Source: a virus
Lineage: Duplodnaviria > Heunggongvirae > Uroviricota > Caudoviricetes
Strand: one strand, 5' to 3'
Virus record (IMG/VR): IMGVR_UViG_3300032265_002746
DNA: 64,000 nt
A program made the position numbers and the translations under genes. Positions 5,407-60,796 of this stretch are shown here, one piece after another (position 1 is the stretch's first letter; each line of letters starts with the position of its first letter). The notes beneath the pieces were generated by a model. The model was not told where the DNA came from. It did no database searches and was given only the letters and a program-made list of their open reading frames with translations.

Positions 5407-6021
5407 CTATTTTTTATCTAATCTACAAGGGCAAAAGTTGCTATTAGCACAGATAATCCCATGTATTATATCGTCAATCTTACTGTATTTATTTGCAAGT
5501 ATGGTTGCACCTTCATTCAATGAAAGTGTAGAACCTTGAGTGGATTCAAAAGAAACTGCATCAAAACACAGCATCTCTAAATCATCCTGAACCATTATGG
5601 CCTCATTTGTTTCCATTACGCTTCCCTGAGCCCTAGAACTAATCCCAAAAGGGATTTTCTTCATAGCTAGTTCTCTAAGTATTTTGCCAGAAGGTGTGTC
5701 TAGTATCTCTACGTCTCCGTATACTTCGTCACCTTCCCAGTGCATCTCGGTAATTACATGTGATACATTTTTAAGTTCAACCACCATTTGACTACAATGG
5801 TCTAGCTCGCCTAGTGCTCTTCTGGTTTTTACGAATTCTTCGTTGTATTTTGATAATACACGCTCAAGTACAGTTCTTGGATAGATTCTTCCGTTTCTAT
5901 TTTTTGCATTAGCCCTTTGAAGCAATATATGCCTAAATACAATTGGAGCATTAGGTAAGGATGCAGCTTCGTTTAACTGGTAATCGCTAAGGGTGACTGG
6001 GAAATATTCGGTAAGTATCAT
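5407..6021 (-). CDS. Prohead core protease (T4 gp21-like, peptidase U9)
   Basis: NRNGRIYPRTVLERV..ALGELDH aligns with T4 gp21 NRNKRLYPKRILEKAV..ALGELNHP. Position next to scaffold and capsid genes agrees. Confidence 0.8.
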   Translation of the reverse strand: MILTEYFPVTLSDYQLNEAASLPNAPIVFRHILLQRANAKNRNGRIYPRTVLERVLSKYNEEFVKTRRALGELDHCSQMVVELKNVSHVITEMHWEGDEVYGDVEILDTPSGKILRELAMKKIPFGISSRAQGSVMETNEAIMVQDDLEMLCFDAVSFESTQGSTLSLNEGATILANKYSKIDDIIHGIICANSNFCPCRLDKK

Positions 6022-19300: not shown

Positions 19301-19751
19301 TGTGCAAAAATAAGTATTAATTCGGATATTTTCCGAATTATTGATAATGGATTATCATTTTTTCTAGTAAATTTGATAATGAGGTAGTAAAACTATGTCT
19401 ATAACTTGGTTCCTACTAGGTACTAACTTAGATACTTTTTGTCGCATTTATAGTAAATATTTGAGACAAAATTTTTAGTACAACCCTTTACTACATTAAG
19501 TTTCATACAAAAAATTAGCGAGGGGGGTATTGGCGTTTTAACTAGGTACTAACTTAGTCCTGACTAGGTACCTGTTCACATTTTTTGGTTGTACACGTTC
19601 CGTGAACAGAGGTAATTCGTGAACAGTATTTTATCAATTATGCTATAATTTAGCGATATTTTTAAATTATCGTGTATTTTATGCAATTAGCTCACCTTGT
19701 GAATCAGTGAAGCAAAATCTAAATATTTGATTACGAATAGTTTACACTATC
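19301..19751. promoter_or_regulatory. Palindrome- and repeat-dense non-coding hub, candidate origin or operator region
   Basis: Perfect inverted repeats AATTCGGAtatttTCCGAATT (19319-19339) and TGATAATggATTATCA. Direct repeats CTAGGTACTAACTTAG x2. CTGTTCAC..GTGAACAG x2. No ORF of 60 aa or more on either strand. Confidence 0.4.
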
Positions 19752-19783
19752 TTAAAAAGAAACCCCCTACAATGAGTAGAGGG
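19752..19783 (-). terminator. Intrinsic terminator
   Basis: On the minus strand, CCCTCTAC-tcatt-GTAGGGGG (one U.G pair) followed by TTTCTTTTT. Confidence 0.6.
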
Positions 19784-20019
19784 TCGGCCTAAGGATGCTA
19801 TCCTAAGGGAAGGTGGAGTCACCATAAGTGACAAAGGATATGCACAGAGGCAGTCCGGGGTTTTCAGAAATCCAACAAGGGACTTCGTATCTCCTTCTCC
19901 ACATGGAAGTTGAGATGAATTAACCTAGAATCAGTATCTAGGTGCAAAGACTTACGGTATCTTGCCTGACGGGAATAAATCCCTGAACCAGTTCCTCCAC
20001 CCTTTGGGTGGTGATATCT
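19784..20019 (-). other. Structured GC-rich 3' non-coding RNA region of unknown class
   Basis: Perfect stems CCTAAGGAT/ATCCTTAGG, GTCAC/GTGAC, CCTAGA/TCTAGG and CCACCC/GGGTGG, located between the stop of the upstream ORF and the terminator. Confidence 0.3.
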
Positions 20020-45648: not shown

Positions 45649-46062
45649 TTACTGGTTAGAATCCAGATCTTGTTTCTCAATCTGGAATTTATCAAGGTTT
45701 GCTTGTATTTCTTTCAAGGTTTCGAAGAAGAATTCAACTTCATCGTCAGTCTTGAATGACCCTTTAGCATCAACTTCTCTTATTTTTTGAGATGATACTT
45801 GTATAAGCATATCAATACTAGTTATGTATTTCTCATACAATTCTATAGCAGGTATGTACTCATTTTCTAATTCTTTTATCCTTGAGTCGGCTAAATCAGA
45901 AAGCTCTTTTAGTTCTGAATCATTGTCAGATTCAATCTTAGACAAGTCTTGTTTAAACTTATCTGAAAGGGTTTTATACTGCCGATAAGCAACTGCCCAT
46001 CCAGCCATAGCTAGAAGGGTTAATAGTGCAACTCCGATTTGAGCAAGATTGATTGTAATCAT
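45649..46062 (-). CDS. Membrane-anchored coiled-coil hypothetical protein
   Basis: N-terminal TM helix LAQIGVALLTLLAMAGWAVA. 137 aa. Confidence 0.5.
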   Translation of the reverse strand: MITINLAQIGVALLTLLAMAGWAVAYRQYKTLSDKFKQDLSKIESDNDSELKELSDLADSRIKELENEYIPAIELYEKYITSIDMLIQVSSQKIREVDAKGSFKTDDEVEFFFETLKEIQANLDKFQIEKQDLDSNQ

Positions 46063-46070
46063 TATATAGT

Positions 46071-46733
46071 TTATTTTTTAGTTAATCTTAAATCACCCAT
46101 AGATTCTATCCTAGCTGACATAGAATCTGCTTGATGAATGATATAAGGCAGGTTACTGTGTAATTTGTATTCGGGTGAATGTGAAATCAAATAAGACTTG
46201 TTACCTTCATCGTACAGACCGGCCTGAAGCTTAATAGAAAGATACTCAGTTTCAGATACCTCTATTCCATGCTGCATAAGCAGGAATATAGTCCTGTCAT
46301 GATCCTTCATAAAAGATAGCTTAGAGTTGAAACCATAAACTTCACCTAACTTCTCAAGTCTCCACTTATCCTTCTGCTCTATATAGAACTCATGTTGATC
46401 ATCACCCATCTTACCTAAGTCGTGAGTTAAGCATACAAAAGTCAATTCTTCTATGCTGAAGTCTATCTCTGCACCCTGCTTACTCCATACTTTGGTGAGA
46501 GATACAGCTGCATCATACACATTAAGAGTATGTTGTACGAACCCTCCTACATAAGCACTATGATAAGATACTTTAGATGATGCCGGCATAAGGGCTAACC
46601 TGTTAGCATATTTTTCAAATAAGTCTGAAAGCTTATTCCATCTGTTTTTTTGCTCTGGATTCTCCGGACAGAATTGTTTAGCTAAATCTGTGAATCTTTC
46701 CCAGTTCTGTTCAATTTTCTTTTCGTCAATCAT
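46071..46733 (-). CDS. HD-domain phosphohydrolase
   Basis: H..H (YHSAYVGGFVQH), HD (CLTHDLGK) and downstream D (IHQADSM) form the HD motif set. 220 aa. Confidence 0.65.
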   Translation of the reverse strand: MIDEKKIEQNWERFTDLAKQFCPENPEQKNRWNKLSDLFEKYANRLALMPASSKVSYHSAYVGGFVQHTLNVYDAAVSLTKVWSKQGAEIDFSIEELTFVCLTHDLGKMGDDQHEFYIEQKDKWRLEKLGEVYGFNSKLSFMKDHDRTIFLLMQHGIEVSETEYLSIKLQAGLYDEGNKSYLISHSPEYKLHSNLPYIIHQADSMSARIESMGDLRLTKK

Positions 46734-46906
46734 AAATGTAAATTTTAAGTTGTTTCTAAATTAAGTTTTAAATAAAAGGCCTCAGAGTGGACACTCATTG
46801 CCTTATGTAATGCAAAGGTATAACAAATAATTGAATATTTTACAAATAATTTTTTTAGGTTAATTATTCATACTATATTTGCATCATATCTAAAATAGAA
46901 TATAAC
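46734..46906. promoter_or_regulatory. Divergent promoter / strand-switch region
   Basis: AT-rich 170-bp gap between the last minus-strand gene and the first plus-strand gene. Confidence 0.4.
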
Positions 46907-47152
46907 ATGAACGGCACACTTAAACCAGGATATAAAATCTTAAAAACAAACGGTATATCATTCTCGATAATGCCATCAGAAGGCAGGATTACAGTCCCAC
47001 CATTATTGAACTTCAAAGAATTCCTAGAAGGTAAGGAAGGCTACGTAGTATGGAGTGATAAGAAGCAAAGTCTTATGTTCCCAGGAGAGAAATTAAAATA
47101 CACCGGCAAAATAATTCTAAAAAGTGAAAGTAAAGTTCCAAGTGAGATATAA
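46907..47152 (+). CDS. Hypothetical small protein
   Basis: 81-aa ORF, first gene after the strand switch. Confidence 0.45.
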   Translation: MNGTLKPGYKILKTNGISFSIMPSEGRITVPPLLNFKEFLEGKEGYVVWSDKKQSLMFPGEKLKYTGKIILKSESKVPSEI

Positions 47153-47309
47153 CGGTTACAGACAGCCGGTAGTGTCCATATTTGAGGTAAAGGCACCTAA
47201 GGGTGCCACAGAGCTTCAGAAGAAGAACCTAATAGACAAGTTCTTCAAGGATAATATAAAACAAGATGGGATTATCCAGAGATGGCCCTATGAAATAATC
47301 GAAAAATAA
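47124..47309 (+). CDS. Hypothetical small protein
   Basis: 61-aa ORF. Confidence 0.35.
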   Translation: MKVKFQVRYNGYRQPVVSIFEVKAPKGATELQKKNLIDKFFKDNIKQDGIIQRWPYEIIEK

Positions 47310-47545
47310 TGAATATAGATTTCAAATGGTTTCGGGACAATCAAAATATATACCACTCCATATTGGTTGATCAGACTATGGAACCTAAGTTCTGTTACTC
47401 AATCTCCCAGTATATTTCAGGTAAGGATAGTTTTGAATGGATAGATATAGTATCTTCATCAGACCTGTACAGAACATACGAAGAAGCAGAGATTGCCTGC
47501 TTAAATGCAATTTATGAAAATAGATTTGGTAGTGTAAATAATTAG
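47309..47545 (+). CDS. Hypothetical small protein
   Basis: 78-aa ORF. Confidence 0.4.
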   Translation: MNIDFKWFRDNQNIYHSILVDQTMEPKFCYSISQYISGKDSFEWIDIVSSSDLYRTYEEAEIACLNAIYENRFGSVNN

Positions 47546-47655
47546 TATTACTTTTGCCTTATATTTATTATTAGTACCGTAAGCAGACGGACGAAGGTAA
47601 AAAAATTAAGAGCGTAACATACTTTTAACATAGTAGGAGAGAGATACAAACTACT

Positions 47656-47703
47656 CCGAAGCCCTGACTCTAGCTGCTTCTAGAATTCGGGGCTTTTTCT
47701 TTT
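47656..47703 (+). terminator. Intrinsic terminator (compound hairpin plus T-run)
   Basis: AAGCCC..[TCTAGctgcttCTAGA]..GGGCTT followed by TTTTCTTTTTC. Confidence 0.5.
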
Positions 47704-47709
47704 TCTACT

Positions 47710-48534
47710 ATGACGCAATTAGCAAAATACCGCACTCTGGCTTTCATCACTCTCATCAAACTTGAGAGGAAGAACTCCGTTGTGGATATGGATGCTCATC
47801 TAGGAGACTTCGCAGCTAAGATTGGTATTTCATACAACTCATATAAGAAGTACCGGAAAATATGCCTAGAACTAGGATTATGCAAAATAGAAAACGGTCA
47901 CGACAGATACATCGATATCCAACAGTGCATCCAGGTACTGGGGCTCACCAAGATAAACAAACATGTTCATTTCTTCAATAAATGTAAGCATGCAGACAGG
48001 ACACTCATCGGTGTCTACGATACCATAATAAAGGGTATCACCCTAAACAACTTCAAGCAACAACAGCATAACACAAATAAGAATAAGGATCTCAAGAGAG
48101 TTACTAAATTGATTCGTAAGAACAGAAATATAGCATCCGCTAAGGATAGAGCTATGGTCAAGCATATCACTAAGAATGCAAGGTACCATAACCTCTCTAC
48201 TTTAGAATACTGTGATAGTATCTTACTAAAAGAATTACAACCTACCGAGGATTCCATTAAGACAGGTAAGTATCATCTATCTAAGCTACTAGGGCTTTCT
48301 CCTTCTACAGGGATTAATCTCTTGAAGGATATGATAAAGGATAATACTGTCAAAAGGACAGTCATTAAGTTTAATGTATCTAAGTTAGGATATAGTAATG
48401 ACTCTTTTGACTTACTTAGGGCTAAGTATCCTAAGTTTACAGTATTACCTTACTCTGGGAATAAGTCCTTTAATGTGTATAAGGGAAGTAGAATTGAATT
48501 AATATCACAGGATCAGCAACTACATATGAGCTAA
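47710..48534 (+). CDS. Hypothetical protein
   Basis: 274-aa ORF. Confidence 0.55.
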   Translation: MTQLAKYRTLAFITLIKLERKNSVVDMDAHLGDFAAKIGISYNSYKKYRKICLELGLCKIENGHDRYIDIQQCIQVLGLTKINKHVHFFNKCKHADRTLIGVYDTIIKGITLNNFKQQQHNTNKNKDLKRVTKLIRKNRNIASAKDRAMVKHITKNARYHNLSTLEYCDSILLKELQPTEDSIKTGKYHLSKLLGLSPSTGINLLKDMIKDNTVKRTVIKFNVSKLGYSNDSFDLLRAKYPKFTVLPYSGNKSFNVYKGSRIELISQDQQLHMS

Positions 48535-48568
48535 CGATGCTATTAAAAGGTATATAAATTGACAGCAG

Positions 48569-49213
48569 ATGAATTCACTAATAGATTTCAGTAAATTAGT
48601 AAAAGAGCCGAAACCGGACGATTCTAGCCAGTATAGGCCTAGAGTGAAGCAATCTATCCAACAGAGGATAAAAAGCGGTAAGAAAGGGGATATAGGTACT
48701 AAAGAGGTGGTATTGGCTTTAGCTAATTACTTCCAGCATCATAAAGTGCAGATAAATAATTGTTATGTGTTTAACGACAAGTTTGAAAACGACTTCGTAA
48801 CCCTATTCGATAGTGGTTACCTAGGTGAGATTGAGGTGAAGGTGAGCCGGAGTGACTTTGCTGAGGATATCACTGGGAAACCTAAGAAACATAAGCTATT
48901 GCTCGAAGGAACCTCCTGGGAGATAATCCCTAACAAATTCTATTACTGTGCGCCCAGAGGGCTGCTATTAAGCTCTGAGGTACCAAAATACGCAGGTCTC
49001 ATAGAGGCTATAAGAGATGAGGAAGGTAATCTTACCTGTACCATAACTAAAGAGGCACCATTCATACATAAGAATGATGTATATAGTAAGGTGAAGGATA
49101 GGATATTCAGGAAGTTAGCCTGGAGGTATAGGCAGATGTTACTAGGTAACTTTGAGCTGTTATTTGAAGATACAGACTCGGATGAAAAAATAAATTTTGA
49201 GGAAGTTGAGTAA
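48569..49213 (+). CDS. Hypothetical protein with possible PD-(D/E)xK nuclease motif
   Basis: LFDSGYLGEIEVKVS contains a D..ExK arrangement. 214 aa. Weak. Confidence 0.4.
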   Translation: MNSLIDFSKLVKEPKPDDSSQYRPRVKQSIQQRIKSGKKGDIGTKEVVLALANYFQHHKVQINNCYVFNDKFENDFVTLFDSGYLGEIEVKVSRSDFAEDITGKPKKHKLLLEGTSWEIIPNKFYYCAPRGLLLSSEVPKYAGLIEAIRDEEGNLTCTITKEAPFIHKNDVYSKVKDRIFRKLAWRYRQMLLGNFELLFEDTDSDEKINFEEVE

Positions 49214-49243
49214 TCACATTATCTTTGCTGAAAACAATGAGTT

Positions 49244-49726
49244 ATGATAAAAAGAATCACCCACGAAGAGTCAAAGAATTACCGGCTGCTGAATCCTGAG
49301 AAGGATTTCAGATATAGTATGGATTGTGCAGTAGCCTTCACTCTAACAGAGACAGACCCACACCCTTGGGAGAATGTCACATATTTTGGAGAAAGTTTTA
49401 CAGATCCAACCAATTCAGTATTAAAACCCCAATGGGTGTATGTGATGGTGAACCCCTCAATCCCAAATACGGTTAAAGTGGGAGCAACCACAACTAGTGT
49501 CACACAACGTGCTAGGGAATTATCTTCACAGACTAGTAGTATCACACCTTGGTATCCTGTATATAGTCTGAAAGTTGGAAATGCATTCATGCTAGAGAAA
49601 GAAGTACACCAGTACTTAGAAGATCGCGGAACCCGTGTATCTCCGCGCAGAGAAGGGTTTGAGATAAGCTCTGAAAGAGCTATTGAAGTAATAAAAGAAT
49701 TAGGTCAGAAATATTTAACAAAATAG
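49244..49726 (+). CDS. T5orf172 (GIY-YIG-like) domain protein
   Basis: QWVYVMVNPSIPNTVKVGATTTSVTQRARELS matches the T5orf172 pattern (YVYVL..KIG.T..RR..EL). 160 aa. Confidence 0.55.
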   Translation: MIKRITHEESKNYRLLNPEKDFRYSMDCAVAFTLTETDPHPWENVTYFGESFTDPTNSVLKPQWVYVMVNPSIPNTVKVGATTTSVTQRARELSSQTSSITPWYPVYSLKVGNAFMLEKEVHQYLEDRGTRVSPRREGFEISSERAIEVIKELGQKYLTK

Positions 49727-49732
49727 GATAAC

Positions 49733-50167
49733 ATGGCACTATTTGAATTAGAAGAAGTAGACAAAGGTAATTACTACGAAGTGAAGGTTATAAAATCTGG
49801 TGATATTTTTGGTAAATTTGCCCTAGATGTAGATGGTTGTTACGGCTTCTGGCCTGAGCCGGGTGAAGGTTGTTATAGTGATTATGTACTGCTTGAATTA
49901 GGTACTCTCCTGAAGAAATTGAATAAACCTTTTTATGATTCGGTAGACGAGTACTACAATTCCAATCGTGGAGGCTTTGGTGAATTAGAGCACAAAGGGT
50001 TTAAGGGTATTGCTGAGTATGATGAATCAGAGGAGTTGTGGCATGCTAAGGCAGTAGGTATAGATAGTGTGACATACATCAGAGCAGAAGGAGAATCCTT
50101 CGAAGAGTTGATAAAAGATTTTGAACAAGCAGTAGAAGATTATTTACAAACAATCGATGAATTATGA
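49733..50167 (+). CDS. Hypothetical acidic protein
   Basis: 144-aa ORF. Confidence 0.5.
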   Translation: MALFELEEVDKGNYYEVKVIKSGDIFGKFALDVDGCYGFWPEPGEGCYSDYVLLELGTLLKKLNKPFYDSVDEYYNSNRGGFGELEHKGFKGIAEYDESEELWHAKAVGIDSVTYIRAEGESFEELIKDFEQAVEDYLQTIDEL

Positions 50168-50484
50168 CAAAAGAGAAATTTAAAGAGTATTTTAAGTTAC
50201 AACAGGGTATATCAGAAAGGTACAGTAACCTTTACAAGAACGGTGTAGACTTGATAGACTACGACAATGAGTTCTACCTTATAATAGAATTATTAGGTGA
50301 AGAATTATTTGGAAAATTTGGGTGGGACCATGTATCTAATTTTGAGATGAGTAGGAAAGAAGTATACTCTCGTGAGAAGCCTATGTGCTGGGATTCAGAG
50401 ACTGAAGAACCTTTATATTGGGATTTGGATTCATTATGGGATTTTATGATTAAGGAAAAATATATTTTGGTTAAAGAGTCTTAA
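50164..50484 (+). CDS. Hypothetical protein
   Basis: 106-aa ORF, ATGA overlap with the upstream gene. Confidence 0.5.
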   Translation: MTKEKFKEYFKLQQGISERYSNLYKNGVDLIDYDNEFYLIIELLGEELFGKFGWDHVSNFEMSRKEVYSREKPMCWDSETEEPLYWDLDSLWDFMIKEKYILVKES

Positions 50485-50493
50485 TCAATACAT

Positions 50494-50787
50494 TTGCATC
50501 AAAAAAATAGATACAGTATGTCATTAATAAAAGAAAAACTACAAGGTAGAATAAAGCCCGTCCTAGAAAAAGAACTAGGCGGGCAAACAAAAGATCAGAT
50601 AGAGCTCATCAGAGAAAGGTATAAGTACCTAGATGAAAAGCTAAGGGATGAGGTGTTAAACAAAGTAGCCGTAGAATACTACCTAGACCTAGATGCCGGT
50701 GAAGACCAGCAGACAGTAATTAATTCATTTATAGCCGGAGCACTCTACGAGAAGTGGAGAGCTGCTATTGAAAAACACGCACAATAA
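50494..50787 (+). CDS. Hypothetical protein
   Basis: 97-aa ORF. Confidence 0.45.
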   Translation: MHQKNRYSMSLIKEKLQGRIKPVLEKELGGQTKDQIELIRERYKYLDEKLRDEVLNKVAVEYYLDLDAGEDQQTVINSFIAGALYEKWRAAIEKHAQ

Positions 50788-50838
50788 AATTAAAACTATA
50801 AATTATAAAGTAATTGAATATTAGTAAAAAAGAAAACA

Positions 50839-51501
50839 ATGAAAAAGATGCTATTAACATTTGCAATGTGCATTTTTTGCACAATACTTTTTGCACAACA
50901 CACCATAACTGTAAAGCACAGTTATTACACCTTAGAATATGACACGTGTATTAAGTCACCTTTGATTAGTTGGTATATACAGACAACTGCTCATGAAAAG
51001 AGTACAAATAAGATAGACCGTAAGACAGTTGCATCTTTCCATCAAGACCCTTTAATTAACCCTAAGTATCAGGTAGCCACTGACAAGGAATACCTGAACA
51101 ATGGTAAATATGATAAAGGGCACCTGGCTCCATACAGTGCATTCTATTTCGACTTAACAGCTGCAAAGGAATCTATGTTGTATACAAACACAGCTCCGCA
51201 GTATTCCTTCTTTAATGAGCACCCTTATGAGCGTTTAGAGCAGCATATACTTAAAGAACTTGCCCCTGATTTTGACTCAATATATGTCTATACAGGATGT
51301 TTATATGGTAATGAAAAGATGAAGGATGTACCTGTACCAGATTATTACTGGAAGGTAATAAAATACAACGGAAAAATAGAAGGGTGGGTGTGTCCAAATG
51401 AGTTTACTAATAACTCAGACTATACAAGATACAAAAAAGACATTGTGTTTATCCGAGATTTGATTTTAAAATATTACCCTAAGTTAAATATACCTTTTTA
51501 A
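50839..51501 (+). CDS. Secreted DNA/RNA non-specific endonuclease (Serratia-nuclease / EndoG family)
   Basis: Signal peptide MKKMLLTFAMCIFCTILFAQ. Active-site block YDKGHLAP (the DRGH motif). Metal-binding NTAPQ. 220 aa. Confidence 0.7.
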   Translation: MKKMLLTFAMCIFCTILFAQHTITVKHSYYTLEYDTCIKSPLISWYIQTTAHEKSTNKIDRKTVASFHQDPLINPKYQVATDKEYLNNGKYDKGHLAPYSAFYFDLTAAKESMLYTNTAPQYSFFNEHPYERLEQHILKELAPDFDSIYVYTGCLYGNEKMKDVPVPDYYWKVIKYNGKIEGWVCPNEFTNNSDYTRYKKDIVFIRDLILKYYPKLNIPF

Positions 51502-51504
51502 TAA

Positions 51505-52137
51505 ATGAACAGACTAAGAGTACTTATTGGTTGTGAAGAATCACAAGAGATAGCAAAGGCATTCAGGGAACTAGGTCACGAAGCATACAGTAATGACTTA
51601 CAAGATTGCTCAGGTGGACACCCAGAATGGCATATTAAGGGTGATGTACTCGAAGTTATCAAGATAAACTGCTGGGATTTAGCTATATTCCACCCAGATT
51701 GCACTTATTTGACCTGTACAGCCAATAAATGGCTGAAAGACCAGCCTGAGCGTAAATCTGGTGTATTAGTAGGAGAACCTCGCAGAATAGCCCAAAAAGA
51801 GGCTATAGAGTTCTTTATGAAGCTATATAACTGCGATATTCCCCATATTGCAATAGAAAACTCCATAGGAGTGATGAGTAGTGCCTTCCGTAAGCCTAAT
51901 CAGATACTACAACCATGGCAATTTGGTCATGGGGAAGTTAAGGCTACCTGCCTATGGACTAGGAACCTACCCATACTAAGCCCTACGGATGTAGTATCAG
52001 GTAGGGTAGCTAGGTCACATAATGTACCACCTAGCCCAGAAAGGTCTAAAATAAGGTCTAAGACCTACCCAGGTATTGCGAAAGCAATAGCAAAGCAGTA
52101 TTCAGACTACGTAATAAAATATAAAAGATGCTTCTAG
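51505..52137 (+). CDS. Hypothetical protein with cytosine-C5-methyltransferase-like core motifs (speculative)
   Basis: WDLAIFHPDCTYLTCTA resembles MTase motif IV (PCQ..S.G). IAIENS resembles the ENV motif. No canonical FxGxGG. 210 aa. Confidence 0.45.
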   Translation: MNRLRVLIGCEESQEIAKAFRELGHEAYSNDLQDCSGGHPEWHIKGDVLEVIKINCWDLAIFHPDCTYLTCTANKWLKDQPERKSGVLVGEPRRIAQKEAIEFFMKLYNCDIPHIAIENSIGVMSSAFRKPNQILQPWQFGHGEVKATCLWTRNLPILSPTDVVSGRVARSHNVPPSPERSKIRSKTYPGIAKAIAKQYSDYVIKYKRCF

Positions 52138-52346
52138 AGTTAAAACTAAAGGTAGATGTAGGAGAAAACTTCATAAGTACCCCTCCAACCCAGGCAGAAC
52201 TGGACTGGTTATATTATGATTTCCTTAATCCCATAAACCTATCACTAGGGGATGAACCATACCCAGTCCTGGGAGTATCTGAAATAAAGTTAATAAATGA
52301 ACAAACCGGCCCTGAAATCCCTAAAATAACATTCTTTAGTGTATGA
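52128..52346 (+). CDS. Hypothetical small protein
   Basis: 72-aa ORF. Confidence 0.4.
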   Translation: MLLELKLKVDVGENFISTPPTQAELDWLYYDFLNPINLSLGDEPYPVLGVSEIKLINEQTGPEIPKITFFSV

Positions 52347-52588
52347 GACATCCATTAATAGCTTTGAGAGAACGACTAAGTAAGATAGGTATAGAAATAG
52401 GCATGTCATCTAATTACCCATGGGTATATTTAGACACTGTAAATGGTAACAGAGTAACTGAAATATACCAAAGTGATCATTACTTCACTATTGGGTTTAT
52501 GAGTATAAGAGATGAAAATGAGTTTAGGTTCACAAACCTAAAAGAAATATTTTTGGTAATCAGAAAATACCTATCTTTGCATAAATAA
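52343..52588 (+). CDS. Hypothetical small protein
   Basis: 81-aa ORF. Confidence 0.4.
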   Translation: MRHPLIALRERLSKIGIEIGMSSNYPWVYLDTVNGNRVTEIYQSDHYFTIGFMSIRDENEFRFTNLKEIFLVIRKYLSLHK

Positions 52589-52595
52589 AATAAAC

Positions 52596-53072
52596 ATGTA
52601 TACAAACAAAAACTACACGACTACCATCAGCTCTTACAAAGAGTTCGAAGAAGAATTAAATGAAGCAATTAACTCATTGAAACCAATGACAGAAAAAGAA
52701 GCAGACATGATAGAATATCTAGCTGACTACCTGGACTTATTCGACCTGCAAGGCGAAGAAGAAGAAGAGTTAGAATCAGAAGTAACAGCCCTGAAACAAA
52801 AGGTAACAGAGCTAGAGAACAGGCTTAAAAACCTAGAGGCACTCCATGAAGATGTAAAAGTAGAACCAGCTAAAAAAGCTGAAGTTGACTACTCCTTCTG
52901 TAACTTCATGGATAAAACACATCCAAGTAAGAATAGAAAAATTATCATAGGTACAAACATAGGTTCATCCACATATAGTGGAATGGCCGAAGTGAAAATA
53001 TCAGAAAGTGTAAACTACACCCAAGACTACATAGACGAGATGGTAAAAACTCAAAAATGGGTAAAATTATAG
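52596..53072 (+). CDS. Hypothetical coiled-coil protein
   Basis: 158-aa ORF with an acidic heptad region. Confidence 0.5.
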   Translation: MYTNKNYTTTISSYKEFEEELNEAINSLKPMTEKEADMIEYLADYLDLFDLQGEEEEELESEVTALKQKVTELENRLKNLEALHEDVKVEPAKKAEVDYSFCNFMDKTHPSKNRKIIIGTNIGSSTYSGMAEVKISESVNYTQDYIDEMVKTQKWVKL

Positions 53073-53314
53073 TAAACAAAAGGTATATTAATTCAATGTT
53101 AAAGAAATTAGCCAAGTCCTATCTGAGGACACTTGAAGTAATAGCAGTTTTATTTATACTACACAAGGTAGTAAGGGAAGCCTTTTCACTAATGAACGCA
53201 AGTAACGACATACTTAACTTCACAGGATTAGTGATACTTACCTTTGTATTTTTAAGTGGATATTACTACATTAAATGGTTTATTCAAAGAATAAATAAAA
53301 AGCAAAAATCATGA
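53057..53314 (+). CDS. Small membrane protein (two TM helices)
   Basis: LEVIAVLFILHKVV and GLVILTFVFLSGYYYI. 85 aa. Confidence 0.45.
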   Translation: MGKIIVNKRYINSMLKKLAKSYLRTLEVIAVLFILHKVVREAFSLMNASNDILNFTGLVILTFVFLSGYYYIKWFIQRINKKQKS

Positions 53315-53544
53315 TAATACTGATAATATACATAGTATTGGTAATAGTACATTTAGGGTGCTTCTTTGCATTTATGGACAGTAAAAAAGGTGATAGTAAA
53401 TACTGGGATGAGTACGGTAACACCTGGGAATTAGGTTATATGCTTTTAGCGGGTATAGGTTCCATACTCTGGCCTATCTTTCTGCCAGTGATATTACTAT
53501 TCAGGCTAGTACGTAAAAAATCAGAAAAATTTTTCAACAAATAG
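53311..53544 (+). CDS. Small membrane protein (two TM helices)
   Basis: IILIIYIVLVIVHLGCFFAF and LLAGIGSILWPIFLPVILLF. 77 aa. Confidence 0.45.
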   Translation: MIILIIYIVLVIVHLGCFFAFMDSKKGDSKYWDEYGNTWELGYMLLAGIGSILWPIFLPVILLFRLVRKKSEKFFNK

Positions 53545-53574
53545 TAATTAACAATTAAAAAAAAAACAAAAAAG

Positions 53575-54438
53575 ATGAAAAACATCGTAAGTTTTCTAGC
53601 ATTCATTATGCTAATGAGTAGTTTAACCAGTTGTATGACGAGAATATCTCCAACTGAAGTAGGATTTCGAATTGACAATGCCGGTGATTATAGAGGCATA
53701 GATAGTTTACCACTATTAACAGGTTGGCAGTTTTACATGCCAGGTGGTAGTTACATCGTAACGTTACCAACAACACAGGAACACGTAGTATGGACTGAAA
53801 GTGAAACAGAAGGTAGCCCAACTGATGAAGCAATCACAGTAGCATGTAGCGGAGGTGCCGGCTTTAAGATGGATGTAGGTGTTAACTATCAGATTATACC
53901 CAATAAAGCCTCTAAGCTATACCTGAAATATAAAACAGACAACCTAAAGACCATTACTAATGGGTTTCTAAGAAACACAGTAAGAAGAGCTATGCAGGAT
54001 GTATCCGGTACTATCACTGTAGATAGTATACTAATAAACCTACCGGCTTATGAGCATGCTGTAAATGACCTACTGAATAAACAATTAGAACCACAAGGTA
54101 TCACACTTATGTTCAGTGTACTAAAGCAACCTACACCTACAGACCCTAATCTGGCTAAGTCTATCGCTTCTAAGATACAAGCAAAGCAAGATGCTGAACG
54201 TGCTGTAACAGAACTACAAAGCAGTATAGCTGAAGCTAATAAGCGTATAGCAAAAGCAAGAGGTGACAGTGCATCAAGAGTGATTGAAGCCTTAGCAGAA
54301 GCTAAAGAAATCACAGTTAAACAAGAAGCATTACGTCAATCACCTCAATACATTGAGCTTGTAAAAGCACAACGCTGGAATGGAGTATTACCTACAGTAA
54401 CAGGTGGTGGATCAGGAATGATTCTCAACATCAAGTAA
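53575..54438 (+). CDS. SPFH/band-7 domain lipoprotein (HflK/C- or flotillin-like)
   Basis: Lipobox LTSC after a signal peptide. Central SPFH-like core. C-terminal QAKQDAERAVTELQSSIAEANKRIAKARGD..EALAEAKEI typical of the SPFH coiled-coil. 287 aa. Confidence 0.55.
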   Translation: MKNIVSFLAFIMLMSSLTSCMTRISPTEVGFRIDNAGDYRGIDSLPLLTGWQFYMPGGSYIVTLPTTQEHVVWTESETEGSPTDEAITVACSGGAGFKMDVGVNYQIIPNKASKLYLKYKTDNLKTITNGFLRNTVRRAMQDVSGTITVDSILINLPAYEHAVNDLLNKQLEPQGITLMFSVLKQPTPTDPNLAKSIASKIQAKQDAERAVTELQSSIAEANKRIAKARGDSASRVIEALAEAKEITVKQEALRQSPQYIELVKAQRWNGVLPTVTGGGSGMILNIK

Positions 54439-54530
54439 AATTTTCCAAAAATTTTTTCAAAGGGGAAATAGCCTTTCAAAGGTAAAATCCCCTTTGATAT
54501 TTTAACAATAAAAAAAGGGGGGTAGGGGAT

Positions 54531-54716
54531 ATGTACATAGACGAAAATCTATTCAATACTATAAGAGCCCAGGCTCTTGTAAAACTGAATAACAACAAAG
54601 ACAGACCTATGTCTGAAGCAACCATAGAGGCAGAAGCTATCCTAGATGTACTAAAGGCCCTAGAGGAAAGCTCCAGGCCTAACTATGATGAAGAAGATTT
54701 AATTAACAGAATATGA
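54531..54716 (+). CDS. Hypothetical small protein
   Basis: 61-aa ORF. Confidence 0.35.
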   Translation: MYIDENLFNTIRAQALVKLNNNKDRPMSEATIEAEAILDVLKALEESSRPNYDEEDLINRI

Positions 54717-54925
54717 AATACAGAATAAAAAGCTATGTAGGCTACGATGGTACTACCTATTACGTAGCAGAGTGTAAACCTAACTGGTGGAGTCTATGGA
54801 TGGAATCTATGTATCACTACAAAACAGAAGAAAAAGCACTAGACCACATAGAAACATGGAAGGAGAATGAAGCAAAAGAACTAGCTAGAAAAAATAGAAA
54901 GTACACTTATAAAGAAGTAAGCTAA
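54713..54925 (+). CDS. Hypothetical small protein
   Basis: 70-aa ORF. Confidence 0.4.
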   Translation: MKYRIKSYVGYDGTTYYVAECKPNWWSLWMESMYHYKTEEKALDHIETWKENEAKELARKNRKYTYKEVS

Positions 54926-55143
54926 TGAAAAACAGGGTATTATTGACACATCTAATGCTAAACAATTTACCACATACAGAAATGAATGTACAAAGTTGGT
55001 CAGTAGGGAGTATAAAGACTAGGAATTATAAACTGGGTGAATACGAAGTCCAGGTGATTGAGTACGAAGGAATGCAAGAAATAAAAGACTATGACCTATA
55101 CATAAACGGTAAGTTTTTTAAAGGTGAGGATACCCCGAATTAA
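54925..55143 (+). CDS. Hypothetical small protein
   Basis: 72-aa ORF. Confidence 0.4.
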   Translation: MKNRVLLTHLMLNNLPHTEMNVQSWSVGSIKTRNYKLGEYEVQVIEYEGMQEIKDYDLYINGKFFKGEDTPN

Positions 55144-55185
55144 CAAGAGGTTAAATAGGCTAGTCAGGGGTGAAGGAGTTTAACA

Positions 55186-55213
55186 GGGGGACATAGTTGT
55201 CCCTTTGTTGTTT
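55186..55213 (+). terminator. Intrinsic terminator
   Basis: GGGACA-tagt-TGTCCC followed by TTTGTTGTTT. Confidence 0.55.
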
Positions 55214-55505
55214 AGTATAGTGAAGTGAGGGTATCTTGGCCGGTAGTTAGGGTAGAAGGGTTTAACCTTAGGTCCAGGGGGAAGGGCAGCCAGAGCAGAT
55301 CTTAGGGTTATTTTATATAATTATATATTTATATATTTTTTTAGATTTGGGGGATTTGGGGTGGGGTTAGAGAGGCAATCTGCTGGATTCCTCCAGCGAA
55401 ATTTTTTCGCTAGTTACGAAAAATCCAGGTTTTTTACGAAAAAAATAAAACGAAAACGATTGAAATTTACGATATTGGAAAAAAGCAAAAAAAAAGTTTG
55501 TCTAG

Positions 55506-55513
55506 TAACTTTG
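55506..55513 (+). promoter_or_regulatory. TAACTTTG, matching a Bacteroidetes-type -7 element (TAnnTTTG)
   Basis: Lies about 140 nt upstream of the 55651 gene in a structured leader. Confidence 0.25.
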
Positions 55514-55650
55514 CAACCCCTATCTTCGCCATGCCATACCATTACCCACTAAAAACACCCTTAAGGGGTGACGGGTAAAGTATTGCCCATACTTTTACAA
55601 TTAAAGTATGGTATTAATTAAAAGGCTATAATAGCCGCAAATTAAAAGTT

Positions 55651-56331
55651 ATGAATGAAGTAAAGAATGTAGTAAAAGAAGTAAGTAAAGAAGCTACAAA
55701 ACAAGTAAAAGAAGTGGTTAGTATTGAAACACTACTTAGTCGCTACCCTATCATTGAGACTGAAACCATAGAAAGGGAAACAGGTTTAAAGGTAGATGGG
55801 TTCGAGGGCTACAACTTAGTAAAAGAAGTGGTTAAAAGTAAAGTTACTAATATAGAAGGAAACAAGCTAGTAACCACTGAAACAGAAACGCAAACGGGGT
55901 TACTACTTAGAAAAGAAGGGGTTGAACCTATTAAGTTTGTAGGGGGCAATGATTATTTTTTGGACACTTCAACCAATACTTTTAAGAAGTATATTAATGT
56001 AGGGGGCAAGATTAGCGAAGCACTGACAGAAGGGGCGAAAAGTAAAGATGTAACAATTGCCAAAAAGGAAACTAAAGGCGAAATAAAGGGCGAGATATAT
56101 AGCCCTTCTTATTGCTTCAAAATAGCCCTTCGCAAAATGAAACAAAACGGCAAATTTGCGAAGCTATTTAGAAAGGGCGAAACATTAGACACTTTACAAT
56201 TGCCTACTATTTTACCCTATATAAATGCTGCACGTCGGGAAAGGTTTAACGGGGGCGAAACGGCTATTTTCACGCCTATTGCTTTTGTTGATTTTATTAC
56301 TAAGTATTTAAGTGACACGACTAACAAGTAG
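55651..56331 (+). CDS. Hypothetical K/E-rich protein whose 3' half carries GGGGCGAA-type repeats
   Basis: 226-aa ORF. The repeats encode GGK / GAK / KGEI / KGET / GGET. Confidence 0.45.
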   Translation: MNEVKNVVKEVSKEATKQVKEVVSIETLLSRYPIIETETIERETGLKVDGFEGYNLVKEVVKSKVTNIEGNKLVTTETETQTGLLLRKEGVEPIKFVGGNDYFLDTSTNTFKKYINVGGKISEALTEGAKSKDVTIAKKETKGEIKGEIYSPSYCFKIALRKMKQNGKFAKLFRKGETLDTLQLPTILPYINAARRERFNGGETAIFTPIAFVDFITKYLSDTTNK

Positions 56332-56690
56332 GGCGTAATTTTACCCCCCTTTACCCCTATGCAAAGTAGGGGGTTAATATCGTAATATTAGAGGGGGGCG
56401 AAGCCAAAGGGGATACCCTTAAACTGTTTTATTGACTATGTTTTGAATAGTCGGGGCGTAATGCCTTGTAAGTAATTTATAAGTAAAACGGGGCGAAGTT
56501 ATTTGACATAAATGTTTATTTTTTCGGGGCAAAGATATTTGCTTTATGTAGCTATTTATGTAATGAATACGAGGGGGCGAAGCTATGTATAAACGAAATT
56601 AAAATAAGGGTTAAAAGAATTATTAAATAGTCTTTTTTGTGGGCTGTTTTGGGCGTAATGCCTTGTAAGTAATTTATAAGTAAGGGCGTT
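55940..56690. repeat. Irregular array of at least 12 GGG(G)CRAA(G) iteron-like repeats, plus a 33-bp direct repeat
   Basis: GGGGCGAAG / GGGGCAAAG / GGGCGTAAT copies at about 55942, 56005, 56030, 56080, 56147, 56173, 56250, 56333, 56396, 56454, 56490, 56526, 56573, 56652 and 56686. GGGCGTAATGCCTTGTAAGTAATTTATAAGTAA occurs at 56453-56487 and again at 56652-56684. Confidence 0.5.
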
Positions 56691-57221
56691 AATCTAAGTT
56701 GTAAACATAATAGTAAAAATAAAAGTAGGTGTATCAGTACACATTGCTGAAGGGATACGTATGTCCCCTTCAGAAAAACTGTTTTATGTAATCCCTAATA
56801 AAGTACGTTGGTTATTAGATTAGGTATTGGAGTAGTAAATGAGTAGGTTTACATAAATAATCTATCTACCTTTACGTTTACTATGTTTGACCTCTGCATA
56901 TTGACCGTTCCCGAAAGGAGTCGTATGTATGTATTTTATCTCTAAACACTATTGGGATATGAACCACCTCTGTATGGATACAAGTGGTAAAGGAGATATT
57001 AATGGAACCATAGTTATAATGGTAAGGTAGTCAAGCAACTACAAAAATGTTAATACATAACACGTATGCAGTAACGTGTTTAATCCCCACAAGAAGGGTA
57101 AAACAACTATAATAAACTTGCAGTCGAAAGGCTACCTATGTGAGTAGGTTAATCCCCGCAAGAAGGGTAAAGGTTGTACAATAGACTTGTATGTCTGCAA
57201 ACATAGTGTAGTGGGCTTGCA

Positions 57222-57246
57222 GAGGGTTCGAGTCCCTCGCTACCAC
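57222..57246 (+). other. tRNA-like T-arm plus acceptor 3' strand (degenerate tRNA or fragment)
   Basis: GAGGG-TTCGAGT-CCCTC followed by GCTACCA-C. No convincing complete cloverleaf upstream. An upstream paralogous unit shares TTAATCCCCRCAAGAAGGGTAAA. Confidence 0.3.
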
Positions 57247-57358
57247 AAACCGCCTGGATTGAGCACTCTTGCCTTTCGGGTGTGTGTCCTCTTGTATACA
57301 ATTTACAAGGGGTGTTTTTAACAAGGGGGTACATTGGTTACTCCTTAAAAAGTTATGT

Positions 57359-57508
57359 ATGGAAAAAGGAGATTTATTTTTATTGATTGTAGGCACTGCA
57401 TTCTGTATATGGATGGCTAGTACTGTGATACCTGAATTGTGCGCTATAGCCACATTCGTAGGTATAGGTTGTGTATTTGGATGGAGAGACTTATTAAATA
57501 AAATATAG
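57359..57508 (+). CDS. Small membrane peptide (49 aa)
   Basis: MEKGDLFLLIVGTAFCIWMASTVIPELCAIATFVGIGCVFGW, preceded by AAAAAGTTATG-type context. Confidence 0.3.
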   Translation: MEKGDLFLLIVGTAFCIWMASTVIPELCAIATFVGIGCVFGWRDLLNKI

Positions 57509-57511
57509 TAT

Positions 57512-57718
57512 ATGAAAAAGAATTTGGATCTAAAGGGGTATGAGTACCCTGAGAAAATGTCATCTAGGGAAAAGACTGCCCTAGTGATAATCATTATAGT
57601 GATGATTGCGTTTACTTTAACTTCGTGTTCTTACCACGAGTACGATTGTGCGGCTCATTACCACTACCACGATTACTACAGTGGTAGGATTACTCCTAGG
57701 TACAAATTAGCCCACTAG
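57512..57718 (+). CDS. Small TM protein with His/Tyr-rich tail
   Basis: 68-aa ORF. TM helix ALVIIIIVMIAFTLT. Confidence 0.4.
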   Translation: MKKNLDLKGYEYPEKMSSREKTALVIIIIVMIAFTLTSCSYHEYDCAAHYHYHDYYSGRITPRYKLAH

Positions 57719-57808
57719 GAGGCTCAAGGCTGCCCTTTACTAGGGTGGCTAGTATGTATGTATTGTTTTATCTTTTAACCGCCTATATTAGGCTTAAATT
57801 AAATTGTT

Positions 57809-57994
57809 ATGGAATTACCTAAGATTCTAGGTAGAATAGTACTACCTGAACCTCCTAAGAAGGAAAGGTGTGCTTGTTGTAGTAGTACTCAGTATCTAAC
57901 TGAGGCAGGGGATAAAATCCTATGTGGTAAATGTTATGAAGATGAGGTATCCTCTTATTGGGAGGTTAACCCATATTATATAGAGTTAATGTAA
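57809..57994 (+). CDS. Small zinc-ribbon protein
   Basis: CACC..CGKC motif. 61 aa. Confidence 0.4.
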   Translation: MELPKILGRIVLPEPPKKERCACCSSTQYLTEAGDKILCGKCYEDEVSSYWEVNPYYIELM

Positions 57995-58039
57995 ATAATT
58001 TTTAAACCCGTTCACATAGTTGAACACAATAATTAGTAT

Positions 58040-58468
58040 ATGGAAAAGATGACTAAGTTCGAGTTCAATCTCGAAAAACAATCCCTTGCTAAGGGAAGCA
58101 ATAATAGTGAGGTTGTATATGAACCTACTAAGAAAGAACTAGTAATAGAGAAGGTTAACACATTGGAGTTATCTTGGTGGAAAAAAACCGCTGAGAGAGT
58201 GTATGGTCGTCCTATTCCCCATAAGGAAGGAGATAGGTATATTCCCTTAGAGAAGGTAAAGGACATACAGTTAGTAGAAGGTAAGATACTCACTGAGTAT
58301 AGAGCCTTGAATGGCTATCTAGATAAGCCTAAGAAGAAGCTAAGAAAAAGGATCCAGTCTATACATACATCTTGTATCAACTCTATCCCTAGTGGAAGGA
58401 AGGTGTATGAGGCAGCACAGAGAAAATGTATTCCTTATTTTCAAGCAAAAGCACTAGCACATGTATAA
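58040..58468 (+). CDS. Hypothetical protein
   Basis: 142-aa ORF. Confidence 0.5.
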   Translation: MEKMTKFEFNLEKQSLAKGSNNSEVVYEPTKKELVIEKVNTLELSWWKKTAERVYGRPIPHKEGDRYIPLEKVKDIQLVEGKILTEYRALNGYLDKPKKKLRKRIQSIHTSCINSIPSGRKVYEAAQRKCIPYFQAKALAHV

Positions 58469-58781
58469 AGATATATTAGAACAGGCCAGGAAGCATTATA
58501 CATTCCACCTGGACCTTATGGAAGGGATGAGTGACGTAGGGGAGATGATAGACTATGCCCATAAGTACGACATAGGCATGGGTCTGTGTTGGTATTTAAT
58601 TATGAGAGCCGGCTATCATAGGGGTGAATACGAGGGTGGCATATTTGATGTCATCAAGAAGGTATCTAAGGGGAATAGGTACTACTTCGAGTATGCCTCT
58701 GATATGCATACTAAGGAGAAGGTATTACAGGCGATAGCTAAGAGGGTTGAATTAATTGATAGGGTATATAAACGCTTATAG
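58461..58781 (+). CDS. Hypothetical protein
   Basis: 106-aa ORF overlapping the upstream gene. Confidence 0.5.
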   Translation: MYKDILEQARKHYTFHLDLMEGMSDVGEMIDYAHKYDIGMGLCWYLIMRAGYHRGEYEGGIFDVIKKVSKGNRYYFEYASDMHTKEKVLQAIAKRVELIDRVYKRL

Positions 58782-58804
58782 CCTACTGATTAGGGTAGGC
58801 TTTC
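58780..58804 (+). terminator. Hairpin / weak terminator
   Basis: AGCCTAC-tgattag-GGTAGGCT followed by TTT. Confidence 0.35.
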
Positions 58805-59083
58805 CTGGGATATAGATACCCTTACCCAAGTAAATGGAGGAGGTCTATTGTTTATGTCTGATCCATCATACTGACTCTGGAGCCTTACCAGTTGAACGCC
58901 TTCTTCCGATGACAAACCAATGAAACACTTGTGAAACGGTTCTTGTTATTATATCGTGCTGTGACTCTTAGGTTGTTGTTGCTACTTAACAGGACACTGT
59001 GGACCATTCGCTTTAACCTGTTTATACTACCTACAGCTGATACTTTTTAAGAACTTATAAGATACTTTTAAGTGATTCCTACA

Positions 59084-59097
59084 TTAATAAATATACA
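59084..59097 (+). promoter_or_regulatory. ATTAATAAATATAC box (orphan copy)
   Basis: Same motif as upstream of the minus-strand genes, here in the plus-strand gene region. Confidence 0.2.
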
Positions 59098-60199: not shown

Positions 60200-60217
60200 A
60201 TTTTAAAAAAGTTAGTT

Positions 60218-60595: not shown

Positions 60596-60776
60596 GTTCA
60601 TCAGGTTATTCAGGATGTCTCATGTCATAGAGAGTGAGATTTTATCTATTAATAGAAAGCTATGTAAGTCTCCCTCTGATAAGGTAGTTATTAGTTTGAC
60701 TAAAAGATATGATAGTCTTTCCAGGAGGAGATACATAGTTCATTTCCATAAACAAAAATTTAGTAGTATTCATTAA
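60582..60776 (+). CDS. Hypothetical small protein
   Basis: 64-aa ORF. Confidence 0.35.
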   Translation: MRTDKFIRLFRMSHVIESEILSINRKLCKSPSDKVVISLTKRYDSLSRRRYIVHFHKQKFSSIH

Positions 60777-60796
60777 CAATTAAAAAAAAAACAGTT

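Follow-up and report, generated by a model that had tools for sequence, protein, structure and literature searches.

A probable horizontally exchanged non-coding cassette, with a candidate new RNA domain, at a junction between late genes of a T4-like phage

Why should a run of closely spaced late genes in a T4-like phage be interrupted by several hundred base pairs in which no gene can be recognised? The question is raised by a stretch of 64,000 nucleotides (hereafter the window) from IMG/VR virus record IMGVR_UViG_3300032265_002746 (Caudoviricetes), where a gap of 719 bp (19301-20019) lies between the stop codon of a 196-amino-acid (aa) gene (20020) and the point, at 19300, where an 88-aa gene starts with ATG. 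The original prediction, made from the letters of the window, singled out positions 19301-19751 for their palindromes and repeats and proposed a replication origin, a pac site or a strongly regulated promoter. Having compared the window with related loci (numbered L001, L002 and so on), we hold with moderate confidence that the gap as a whole is a non-coding cassette, specific to its lineage and horizontally exchanged, which occupies an insertion hotspot between two conserved late genes and is organised as a composite terminator/re-initiation unit with cargo. That prediction missed a structured RNA, the terminator of this RNA and the mosaic, hotspot nature of the locus, and the main result, as far as sequence comparison carries it, would be that a non-coding cassette bearing a new, covariation-supported RNA domain has been horizontally exchanged at a hyperplastic junction.

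Read on the minus strand, the gap has three parts: a folded RNA with its terminator, an AT-rich repeat module and a promoter-proximal block. The interval 19301-19751 is only the post-terminator portion, with a GC content of 0.25-0.33 in its AT-rich part, and the other 268 bp (19752-20019) differ from it in kind, stepping up to a GC content of 0.45-0.47 against about 0.35 elsewhere. The claim of a gene-free stretch is borne out over the full 719 bp, as no open reading frame (ORF) on either strand attains 60 aa: runs free of stop codons extend to 60 codons at the longest, and no listed ORF inside the gap is longer than 46 aa. The companion claim, that neighbouring genes are spaced by 0-30 bp, is true of the immediate neighbours but not elsewhere, where other operon boundaries measure 110-220 bp. 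A normal ORF concealed by sequencing errors, which had been named as a possible undoing of the proposal, can be set aside together with a decayed gene: six-frame reading, the pattern of insertions and deletions relative to L004, and tblastn with the HNH protein of L018 and 47 cargo proteins yielded no ORF of this kind and no coding remnant. An 88-aa ORF that overlies the RNA in L004 is treated here as probably spurious because it is not conserved in the window, and no tRNA or tmRNA gene was found.

The first of the three parts (20019-19751) is a GC-rich chain of hairpins with a minimum free energy of -90.7 kcal/mol and a folding z-score of -2.45 when read on the minus strand (plus strand, -1.70). 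Six G.U pairs in this structure would be A.C mismatches on the plus strand, which argues for a minus-strand RNA. At its end lies an intrinsic terminator, with a stem of 10 bp (19785-19761) followed by a TCTTTTT run. L001-L005 and L018 have a homologous hairpin, likewise with its T-run, and the copy in L004 shows compensatory changes. When the whole RNA of the window is folded jointly with that of L004 (alifold), 60 pairs are identical, five are changed on one side, six are compensatory and none is broken. Compensatory pairs and strand preference, the two marks of a structured non-coding RNA (ncRNA), are thus both present, and on these sequence comparisons we take the structure to be real and to lie on the minus strand.

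The evidence for the 5′ domain of the RNA goes further. A covariance model of this domain (R1, hairpins H1-H4), trained on two sequences only (the window and L004), recovers L016/L101 at 56 bits (E about 1e-9) and a partial copy in L002 at 39.5 bits. In the R1 alignment 95.9% of the cells are paired and 15 of the 26 pairs change on both sides, a count that none of 500 shuffles reached, while slid controls gave 32-51% pairing; this covariation comes from four sequences in an alignment fitted to the model. Aligned by hand in the window, L004 and L016, the 5′ domain has compensatory changes at 11 of its 25 pairs. Among the conserved features of R1 are the 7-nt loop of H3, ACCNWAA, with its U.G closing pair, and the sequence GGTTAAYT that follows H4. 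We also observed that L004/L098 (3611-3745) carry an extra domain of 135 nt between the 5′ and 3′ domains of the window-type RNA, and that part of this domain (ATCCTTCCATTTGGAG...GCATTT) occurs in L002 (~5680-5760), which suggests that the RNA is modular.

No known family accounts for this RNA. Rfam 15 gave nothing at gathering score over the whole window, and queries of 1.7 kb and 286 nt returned only noise of at most 15 bits at E up to 10; abiF (RF03085), DUF3800-I to XI, drum, skipping-rope, the group I intron and ribozymes were rejected accordingly. Five pattern scans of IMG/VR returned the same contigs only, a strict pattern run over genome contigs had 0 hits, and a loose genome pattern gave 120 chance hits among the matches listed, with 80 loci screened by R1 and none significant. 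Taken over 92 phage loci, 80 bacterial loci, 100 abiF-bearing viral loci and the strict pattern scans, the R1 search found no copy outside these phages. The R1 domain is therefore best described as a candidate new RNA family, supported by covariation and lacking an Rfam counterpart.

How the gap came to be there is suggested by the related loci. Among 74 that hold both flanking genes, the two genes abut in 28, are 20-150 nt apart in four and more than 150 nt apart in 41; in phage immuto they are separated by 1 nt. The insert of distant relatives is packed with same-strand ORFs, including four homing endonucleases of the I-TevI/NUMOD type, an amidase and leucine-rich-repeat proteins, and non-coding inserts are found only in the window's own subclade. 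The minimal form, in L005/L021, consists of 119 bp with a terminator and a promoter only.

Within this subclade the distribution is mosaic. L001 and L002 have flanks 93-98% identical to those of the window, yet they contain a different gap and a different RNA and lack the AT-rich repeat module (module b, Table 1); homology breaks at 20086 in L001 and at 19897 in L002 and resumes at 19383 (the edge of the promoter-proximal block, block c). L004, in turn, reaches only 67-76% identity in the flanks, yet the figure rises to about 92% over 19710-19350 and to 85% in the RNA 5′ domain. Nor is the mosaic confined to the gap: homology to L001 is lost at 20086, within the 3′ end of the 196-aa gene, and the C-termini of the two proteins differ. 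Because the gap differs between phages with 93-98% identical flanks and 19710-19350 is shared with one at 67-76%, we infer that the cassette has been horizontally exchanged. On the sequences compared it would be accessory, and either exchanged in this way or else under unusually strong selection; it appears dispensable in close relatives either way.

We propose the following working of the cassette. Transcription of the tail and baseplate genes would run past the stop codon of the 196-aa gene into the structured RNA of about 265 nt and end at the terminator (19785-19751). Since transcription through the RNA would stop at an intrinsic terminator, the RNA may be made as the stable, hairpin-protected 3′ end of the late message, or else be processed from that message; as no promoter of its own is recognisable in the window, it is probably the 3′ end. 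The AT-rich 450 bp flagged originally would then serve as the re-initiation region for the packaging/head operon, with block c providing a host-type -7 box and palindromes in operator position. Upstream of block c, duplicated and partly inverted promoter-palindrome modules may be both products of and substrates for the recombination that swaps cargo. Taken alone, the flagged AT-rich part is probably an ordinary promoter and recombination region.

The closest known parallel is provided by PeSLs (promoter-early stem-loops), composite stem-loop terminator/promoter cassettes through which T4-type phages shuffle modules (Arbiol et al. 2010, PMC2839356; Comeau et al. 2014, PMC4122927). As in PeSLs, a stem-loop terminator stands beside a putative host-type promoter between conserved core genes of a T4-like phage, and the element marks the exact boundaries of indels or swaps between near-identical phages. 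The terminator and putative promoter are directly juxtaposed in L001-3, L005 and L016, while in the window 279 bp of module b lie between the terminator and the predicted promoter. The differences are threefold: PeSLs are dispersed and multi-copy in early hyperplastic regions, whereas the present element is single-copy in 64 kb and lies in a late structural run; its predicted promoter is of the Bacteroidota TAnnTTTG type and that of PeSLs is sigma70; and its cargo is ncRNA, whereas that of PeSLs is ORFans.

Several points weigh against an exchanged terminator/re-initiation cassette. The -33 element of the predicted promoter reads only TTCG, and ATATTTAT, the phage's own putative late-promoter motif, is present in the gap as imperfect copies only, at 19726 and 19460. 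PeSLs recur within a genome, and nothing in the gap recurs in the 64-kb window. The identity of about 92% to L004 over 19710-19350 could reflect strong purifying selection on a function at the DNA level and not recent transfer. Finally, the conservation arguments are thin, as they draw on only four or five independent sequences and on an R1 alignment fitted to its model.

Table 1. Features of the gap and its flanks, and corresponding junctions in relatives; coordinates refer to the window unless a locus is named.
Feature	Position	Strand	Remark
Upstream flanking gene, 196 aa	20020..20610	minus	conserved across aquatic T4-like phages
RNA 5′ domain, model R1, hairpins H1-H4	19913..20014	minus	covariance model
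RNA 3′ part, hairpins H5-H9	19786..19912	minus	window vs L004 alifold
Intrinsic terminator, GACCCTCTAC-TCATT-GTAGGGGGTT then TCTTTTT	19751..19785	minus	terminator scan
AT-rich repeat module (module b)	19472..19750		holds CTGTTCAC, GTGAACAG, CTAGGTACTAACTTAG and CTAGGTAC repeats
Near-palindrome AATTATAGCATAATT	19637-19651		in module b; apparent second, diverged copy of palindrome module
GTGAACAG	19602-19609 and 19619-19626		
CTGTTCAC	19572-19579		
CTAGGTAC	19564 (19564-19571)		third copy in CTAGGTACTAACTTAG set
CTAGGTACTAACTTAG	19416 (19416-19431) and 19542 (19542-19557)		exact repeat, 17 nt
Inverted repeat TTTTGTCTC-N17-GCGACAAAA, promoter-like A/T loop inside	19437..19471		conserved, single copy per genome
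Variable spacer with second CTAGGTACTAACTTAG copy (19416-19431)	19384..19436		unrelated sequence there in L001-3
Promoter-proximal block (block c)	19301..19383	minus	conserved in L001-4
ATTATCA/TGATAAT half-sites	19374-19380, 19351-19357, 19342-19348		block c
TTGATAATG	19341 and 19373		two copies
TGATAAT with ATTATCA, palindrome	19342-19348 and 19351-19357		exact motif
AATTCGGA palindrome	19319-19326; complement 19332-19339		exact motif
AATTCGGA-N5-TCCGAATT palindrome	19319-19339		block c
Predicted -7 box TATTTTTG, Bacteroidota type	19305-19312 (read 19312-19305)	minus	4 nt before ATG, conserved in L001-4
Downstream flanking gene, 88 aa	19034..19300	minus	first gene of run to large terminase, portal, major capsid
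ATATTTAT copies	758, 2069, 5388, 10768, 13764, 16964/16976, 23123, 30876, 41334, 44692 and others	minus	motif scan
Non-coding gap sizes	L005/L021, 119 bp; L001, 421; L002/L003, 478; L016, 440; L004, 875		
HNH endonuclease gene at junction	L018 3716-4042		
I-TevI DNA-binding/NUMOD-type genes at junction, 445-456 aa	L006 5603-6940; L009 3268-4605; L043 665-2035; L056 3604-4974		

The palindromes and repeats that first drew attention to the locus are all found where the original prediction placed them, and their density is as unusual as it claimed. Against 1000 dinucleotide-preserving shuffles of 19301-19751, the longest direct repeat (17 against 9.1 +/- 1.1 expected) and the number of repeated 8-mers (25 against 5.5 expected) were each equalled in none, inverted 7-mers within 40 nt number 13 against 3.0 expected (p = 0.004), and with the window divided into 141 tiles of equal size, this one comes within the top 1-3. 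A family of 22-nt repeats comprises three copies, 68-82% identical to the one taken as reference, with spacings of 137 and 11 nt. None of the quoted motifs occurs elsewhere in the 64-kb window. A dispersed repeat or miniature inverted-repeat transposable element is ruled out, the module being single-copy within the window and having no terminal inverted repeats on inspection of the sequence.

These repeats give the impression of a promoter-palindrome module that was duplicated or inverted, as indicated by the placement of the module in L001-3, by a better match of the window and L004 in inverted orientation and by the second copy in module b; the pattern is reminiscent of PeSLs. L001-3 have a homologous palindrome element immediately after the terminator, with a TAnnTTTG box on the strand of the genes. 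When window 19436-19505 is compared with L002 5888-5954 and L001 5813-5882, the module of the window and L004, together with about 35 nt of flank, aligns better inverted: the inverted high-scoring segment pair spans 67-70 nt, and in the 31-nt core 26 of 31 positions match L002 inverted against 23 of 31 direct (manual count). The difference in orientation could be due to inversion or to independent insertion.

Module b itself is present only in the window and L004/L019/L098 and is absent from L001-3. From 19710 on it is 88-95% identical, though the flanking genes are 67-76% identical. Folded as RNA it does no better than shuffles (z = -0.9 and -1.3), and on these scores a structured RNA in 19500-19760 was rejected; the value for 19301-19500 is weak (z = -2.4).

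Of the three functions first proposed, only the regulated promoter has support, and origin and pac site have none. The promoter reading is favoured because the segment comes directly after a terminator and before the next operon, and because conservation of its final 83 bp extends to all four relatives in which it occurs; a regulated promoter at block c, with a candidate operator, is accordingly plausible on sequence grounds. The TATTTTTG box matches the type upstream of the phage's early genes, and L018 has TATCTTTG 4 nt before its HNH gene. The -33 position, TTCG, is 21 nt upstream of TATTTTTG, the sigma-A reference being TTTG about 19-21 nt upstream of TAnnTTTG, and the AATTCGGA dyad sits between the two elements.

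A more specific possibility, which we regard as doubtful although it deserves consideration, is that block c is a promoter gated by a dimeric DNA-binding protein that would bind the half-sites and/or AATTCGGA and control the packaging/head operon. Three half-sites of the ATTATCA type occur within 40 bp where about 0.016 would be expected (window frequency, 26 per 64 kb), and the AATTCGGA palindrome is well placed for such a role between -33 and -7 box. Identity in block c amounts to 100% for L002/3, 88% for L001 and about 90% for L004 and gives way to divergence immediately past the ATG, and TGATAAT-N2-ATTATCA is still a perfect palindrome in L004 despite an altered centre. Comparison with relatives nonetheless gives a divided answer to the concern, raised with the original prediction, that they might lack the palindromes: the CTGTTCAC and CTAGGTAC repeats are indeed lacking, while the proximal palindromes are retained but only partly conserved, with TGATAAT/ATTATCA degraded in L001 and AATTCGGA degraded in L004, both without compensation. 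Moreover, the L001 change keeps a G.U pair, so that the site could be an RNA hairpin no less than a DNA element, block c has no candidate regulator tied to it, and L005, L016 and L018 do without the block, expressing the same operon from other promoters.

What the RNA cargo does is a separate matter, and one relative offers a lead. The syntenic gap of L016/L101 (885-1323) contains an abiF RNA motif at 929-964 (RF03085, 38.6 bits, the gathering score being 37) that has a terminator of its own; the R1 domain at 1025-1122, which comes after a terminator whose T-run reads TATTTTTG; a DUF3800-VIII motif at 1238-1303 (RF03075, 43.6 bits against 40.2); and, between this motif and the ATG, a late-promoter-like GATATTTAT box. 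All ORFs of this 9.9-kb contig are homologues of window genes, which leaves no room for an abiF or DUF3800 gene, and no Abi_2 or DUF3800 protein is found among the 75 ORFs of the window. The abiF-motif RNA is an antitoxin that binds the HEPN toxin AbiF (10.1101/2025.04.15.648962; PMC12737573), and DUF3800 is an RNase H-like domain linked to defence and mobile genetic elements, with 11 unrelated partner RNAs (PMC5737381, PMC10910872, PMC13594972). Orphan abiF motifs appear to be common in viruses: the core AAGCCTCTCNACGATGCTCA was found by pattern scan in at least 120 viral contigs (IMG/VR loci L224-L342), 15 of the 16 tested pass the Rfam gathering score, and several lie inside phage tRNA arrays, adjoining wcaG or Glutamine-II motifs. 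Only two of 85 ORFs that start within 400 nt downstream of the core, among the matches listed, are Abi_2, and most phage-borne abiF-motif RNAs thus look like orphans, as would fit antitoxin mimicry.

It is conceivable, if rather unlikely, that the structured RNA is a trans-acting accessory ncRNA, chiefly an anti-defence decoy that mimics the RNA partner of a host nuclease, with the AT-rich part as mere context for expression or recombination; this proposal concerns the role of the RNA and is compatible with the exchanged cassette. Beyond the position of R1 between the abiF and DUF3800-VIII motifs, both of them orphans there, an accessory and exchanged cassette is what such a decoy would occupy. 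There is also a precedent, as phage PhiTE reportedly neutralises an abortive-infection toxin with a pseudo-ToxI RNA, a finding that Blower and colleagues are said to have made in 2012; ToxI, however, is a tandem 36-nt repeat processed by its toxin, and the RNA of the window has no tandem repeats. Like the abiF RNA, antitoxin of the AbiF type III toxin-antitoxin system, and the DUF3800-VIII RNA, with which R1 is contiguous in L016, the window RNA belongs among short, hairpin-rich elements followed by terminators and found in phages without a cognate protein gene, but it matches neither model and shows no homology to them in sequence or structure, and its 286-nt query meets no Rfam family even at E = 10. 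R1 was confined to these phages in our searches and showed no link there to any host defence gene, and an RNA that appears to be a late 3′ untranslated region (UTR) without its own promoter would come late for a counter-defence factor. An anti-defence role, suggested by the orphan motifs of one relative, is accordingly speculative.

A wider conjecture, and an improbable one, is that the junction is a phage RNA-cargo island in which structured ncRNAs are swapped as decoys for RNA-dependent host nucleases. The window RNA, with R1 and its ACCNWAA loop, would then be an undescribed member of this cargo beside the motifs of L016, and orphan abiF RNAs in lytic phages would be mimics directed against AbiF, a proposed ancestor of Cas13.

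The endonuclease genes found at this junction in relatives raise the question of whether the AT-rich module is merely a functionless scar of homing endonuclease gain and loss, made up of residual promoter, UTR and target sequences. An HNH gene occupies the junction in L018 and I-TevI/NUMOD-type genes do so in L006, L009, L043 and L056, as at the seg/mob homing sites of T4-like phages. The mosaic that reaches into the end of the 196-aa gene resembles the tracts expected from co-conversion around a double-strand break, and the phage has other homing elements (a SegE-like GIY-YIG endonuclease and a LAGLIDADG intein). The window nevertheless differs from such sites in having no endonuclease ORF or remnant, the search with 47 cargo proteins having found none, and its module boundaries have no terminal inverted repeats. 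Furthermore, the identity of about 92% to L004 exceeds that of the flanking coding DNA, so that decaying junk would need a very recent transfer, and we therefore find a scar hard to credit, though not to the point of dismissal.

It is highly improbable that the region is a pac site or an origin of replication on the pattern of T4 oriE/oriF, made up of iterons, an AT-rich unwinding element and a priming promoter: the low GC content, the density of repeats and palindromes, the promoter-like element and a large terminase gene about 4 kb away, with the gap on its upstream side, are what could be expected of either, but module b is absent from relatives with 93-98% identical flanks (L001-3, which lack it, share a near-identical terminase region), the repeats number just two or three copies at irregular spacing where an iteron array has at least three regularly spaced ones, no initiator gene is adjacent and no neighbouring protein has a replication-related domain, and headful packaging, the mode of T4-like terminases, uses no fixed pac site. 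The cumulative skew check suggested with the original prediction gave no inflection around 19.5 kb for either GC or AT skew; the sign changes just once, at about 46.8 kb, where coding passes to the other strand. In phages, skew counts as weak evidence. T4 has redundant origins, and absence from relatives would on that account not be fatal to an origin. The T4 origins oriE and oriF/oriG are also AT-rich intergenic DNA with a promoter and short repeats in a late-gene region; the gap differs from them in having no iteron array, skew signal or nearby initiator, and in being dispensable in close relatives. On this evidence origin and pac site are not supported, and the exchanged cassette remains the reading we prefer.

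The setting of the cassette is that of a late operon. Judging by domain matches among the window proteins (Gp23 capsid, Gp20-type portal, gp25, Terminase_6N, prohead protease and PhoH), the phage is T4-like. Every gene at positions 25-46733 is on the minus strand, with baseplate and tail genes upstream of the gap and the large terminase, portal and capsid genes downstream. The 196-aa gene has more than 533 relatives in metagenomes and a homologue, gp099, in Flavobacterium phage immuto. Megablast and blastn against the isolated phages of INPHARED gave no nucleotide-level match; protein similarity points to Flavobacterium phage vB_FspM_immuto as the nearest isolate, the capsid protein being 45% and the 196-aa protein 51% identical. 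This kinship, the absence of a Shine-Dalgarno sequence at every gene start of the window, the TTTG-N~20-TAnnTTTG elements ahead of early genes (46874, 49220, 52572) and the lack of enrichment in sigma70-type sites (60 found against 64 expected) together make a Bacteroidota host of the Flavobacterium type likely. There are 15 copies of ATATTTAT on the coding (minus) strand and two on the plus strand, mostly 7-30 nt upstream of late-gene starts, and the motif is probably the late promoter of this phage and a candidate late-promoter motif for the phage group.

A near-consensus sigma70-like sequence (TGAACA-18-TGcTATAAT) is found on the plus strand of module b at 19620-19649, antisense towards the RNA and conserved in L004. 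In a Bacteroidota host such a sequence would probably play no part, and a plus-strand RNA made from it was considered unlikely in view of the Bacteroidota-type promoters, the lack of sigma70 enrichment and the G.U pairs that favour the minus strand.

Other observations concern the rest of the window. The SegE-like GIY-YIG homing endonuclease is encoded at 769-2043, adjoining the major capsid gene, and one window protein matches both Intein_splicing and LAGLIDADG_3. The early region (46000-64000) has further ORF-poor stretches of 0.8-1.0 kb, at 56331-57136 and 58781-59843, with no Rfam match, as well as an excess of terminator-like hairpins (33 against 9.9 expected). A scaffold of 36.6 kb in a public metagenome assembly (L223; ENA ERZ28593671, KRAE22-1 scaffold_473) is 100% identical to window 22300-16034, which indicates the same phage and makes that assembly minable for reads.

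The leads of interest are the RNA and the orphan defence-RNA motifs of its relatives. If the gap is indeed an exchanged cassette, then the hyperplastic junctions of T4-like phages would shuffle structured RNAs besides ORFans and homing endonucleases, with the terminator/promoter pair as the point of exchange, and the PeSL concept would come to cover non-coding cargo and the phages of Bacteroidota. The orphan RNAs of the abiF and DUF3800-VIII types, in turn, would make mimicry of type III antitoxins by lytic phages a directly testable hypothesis.

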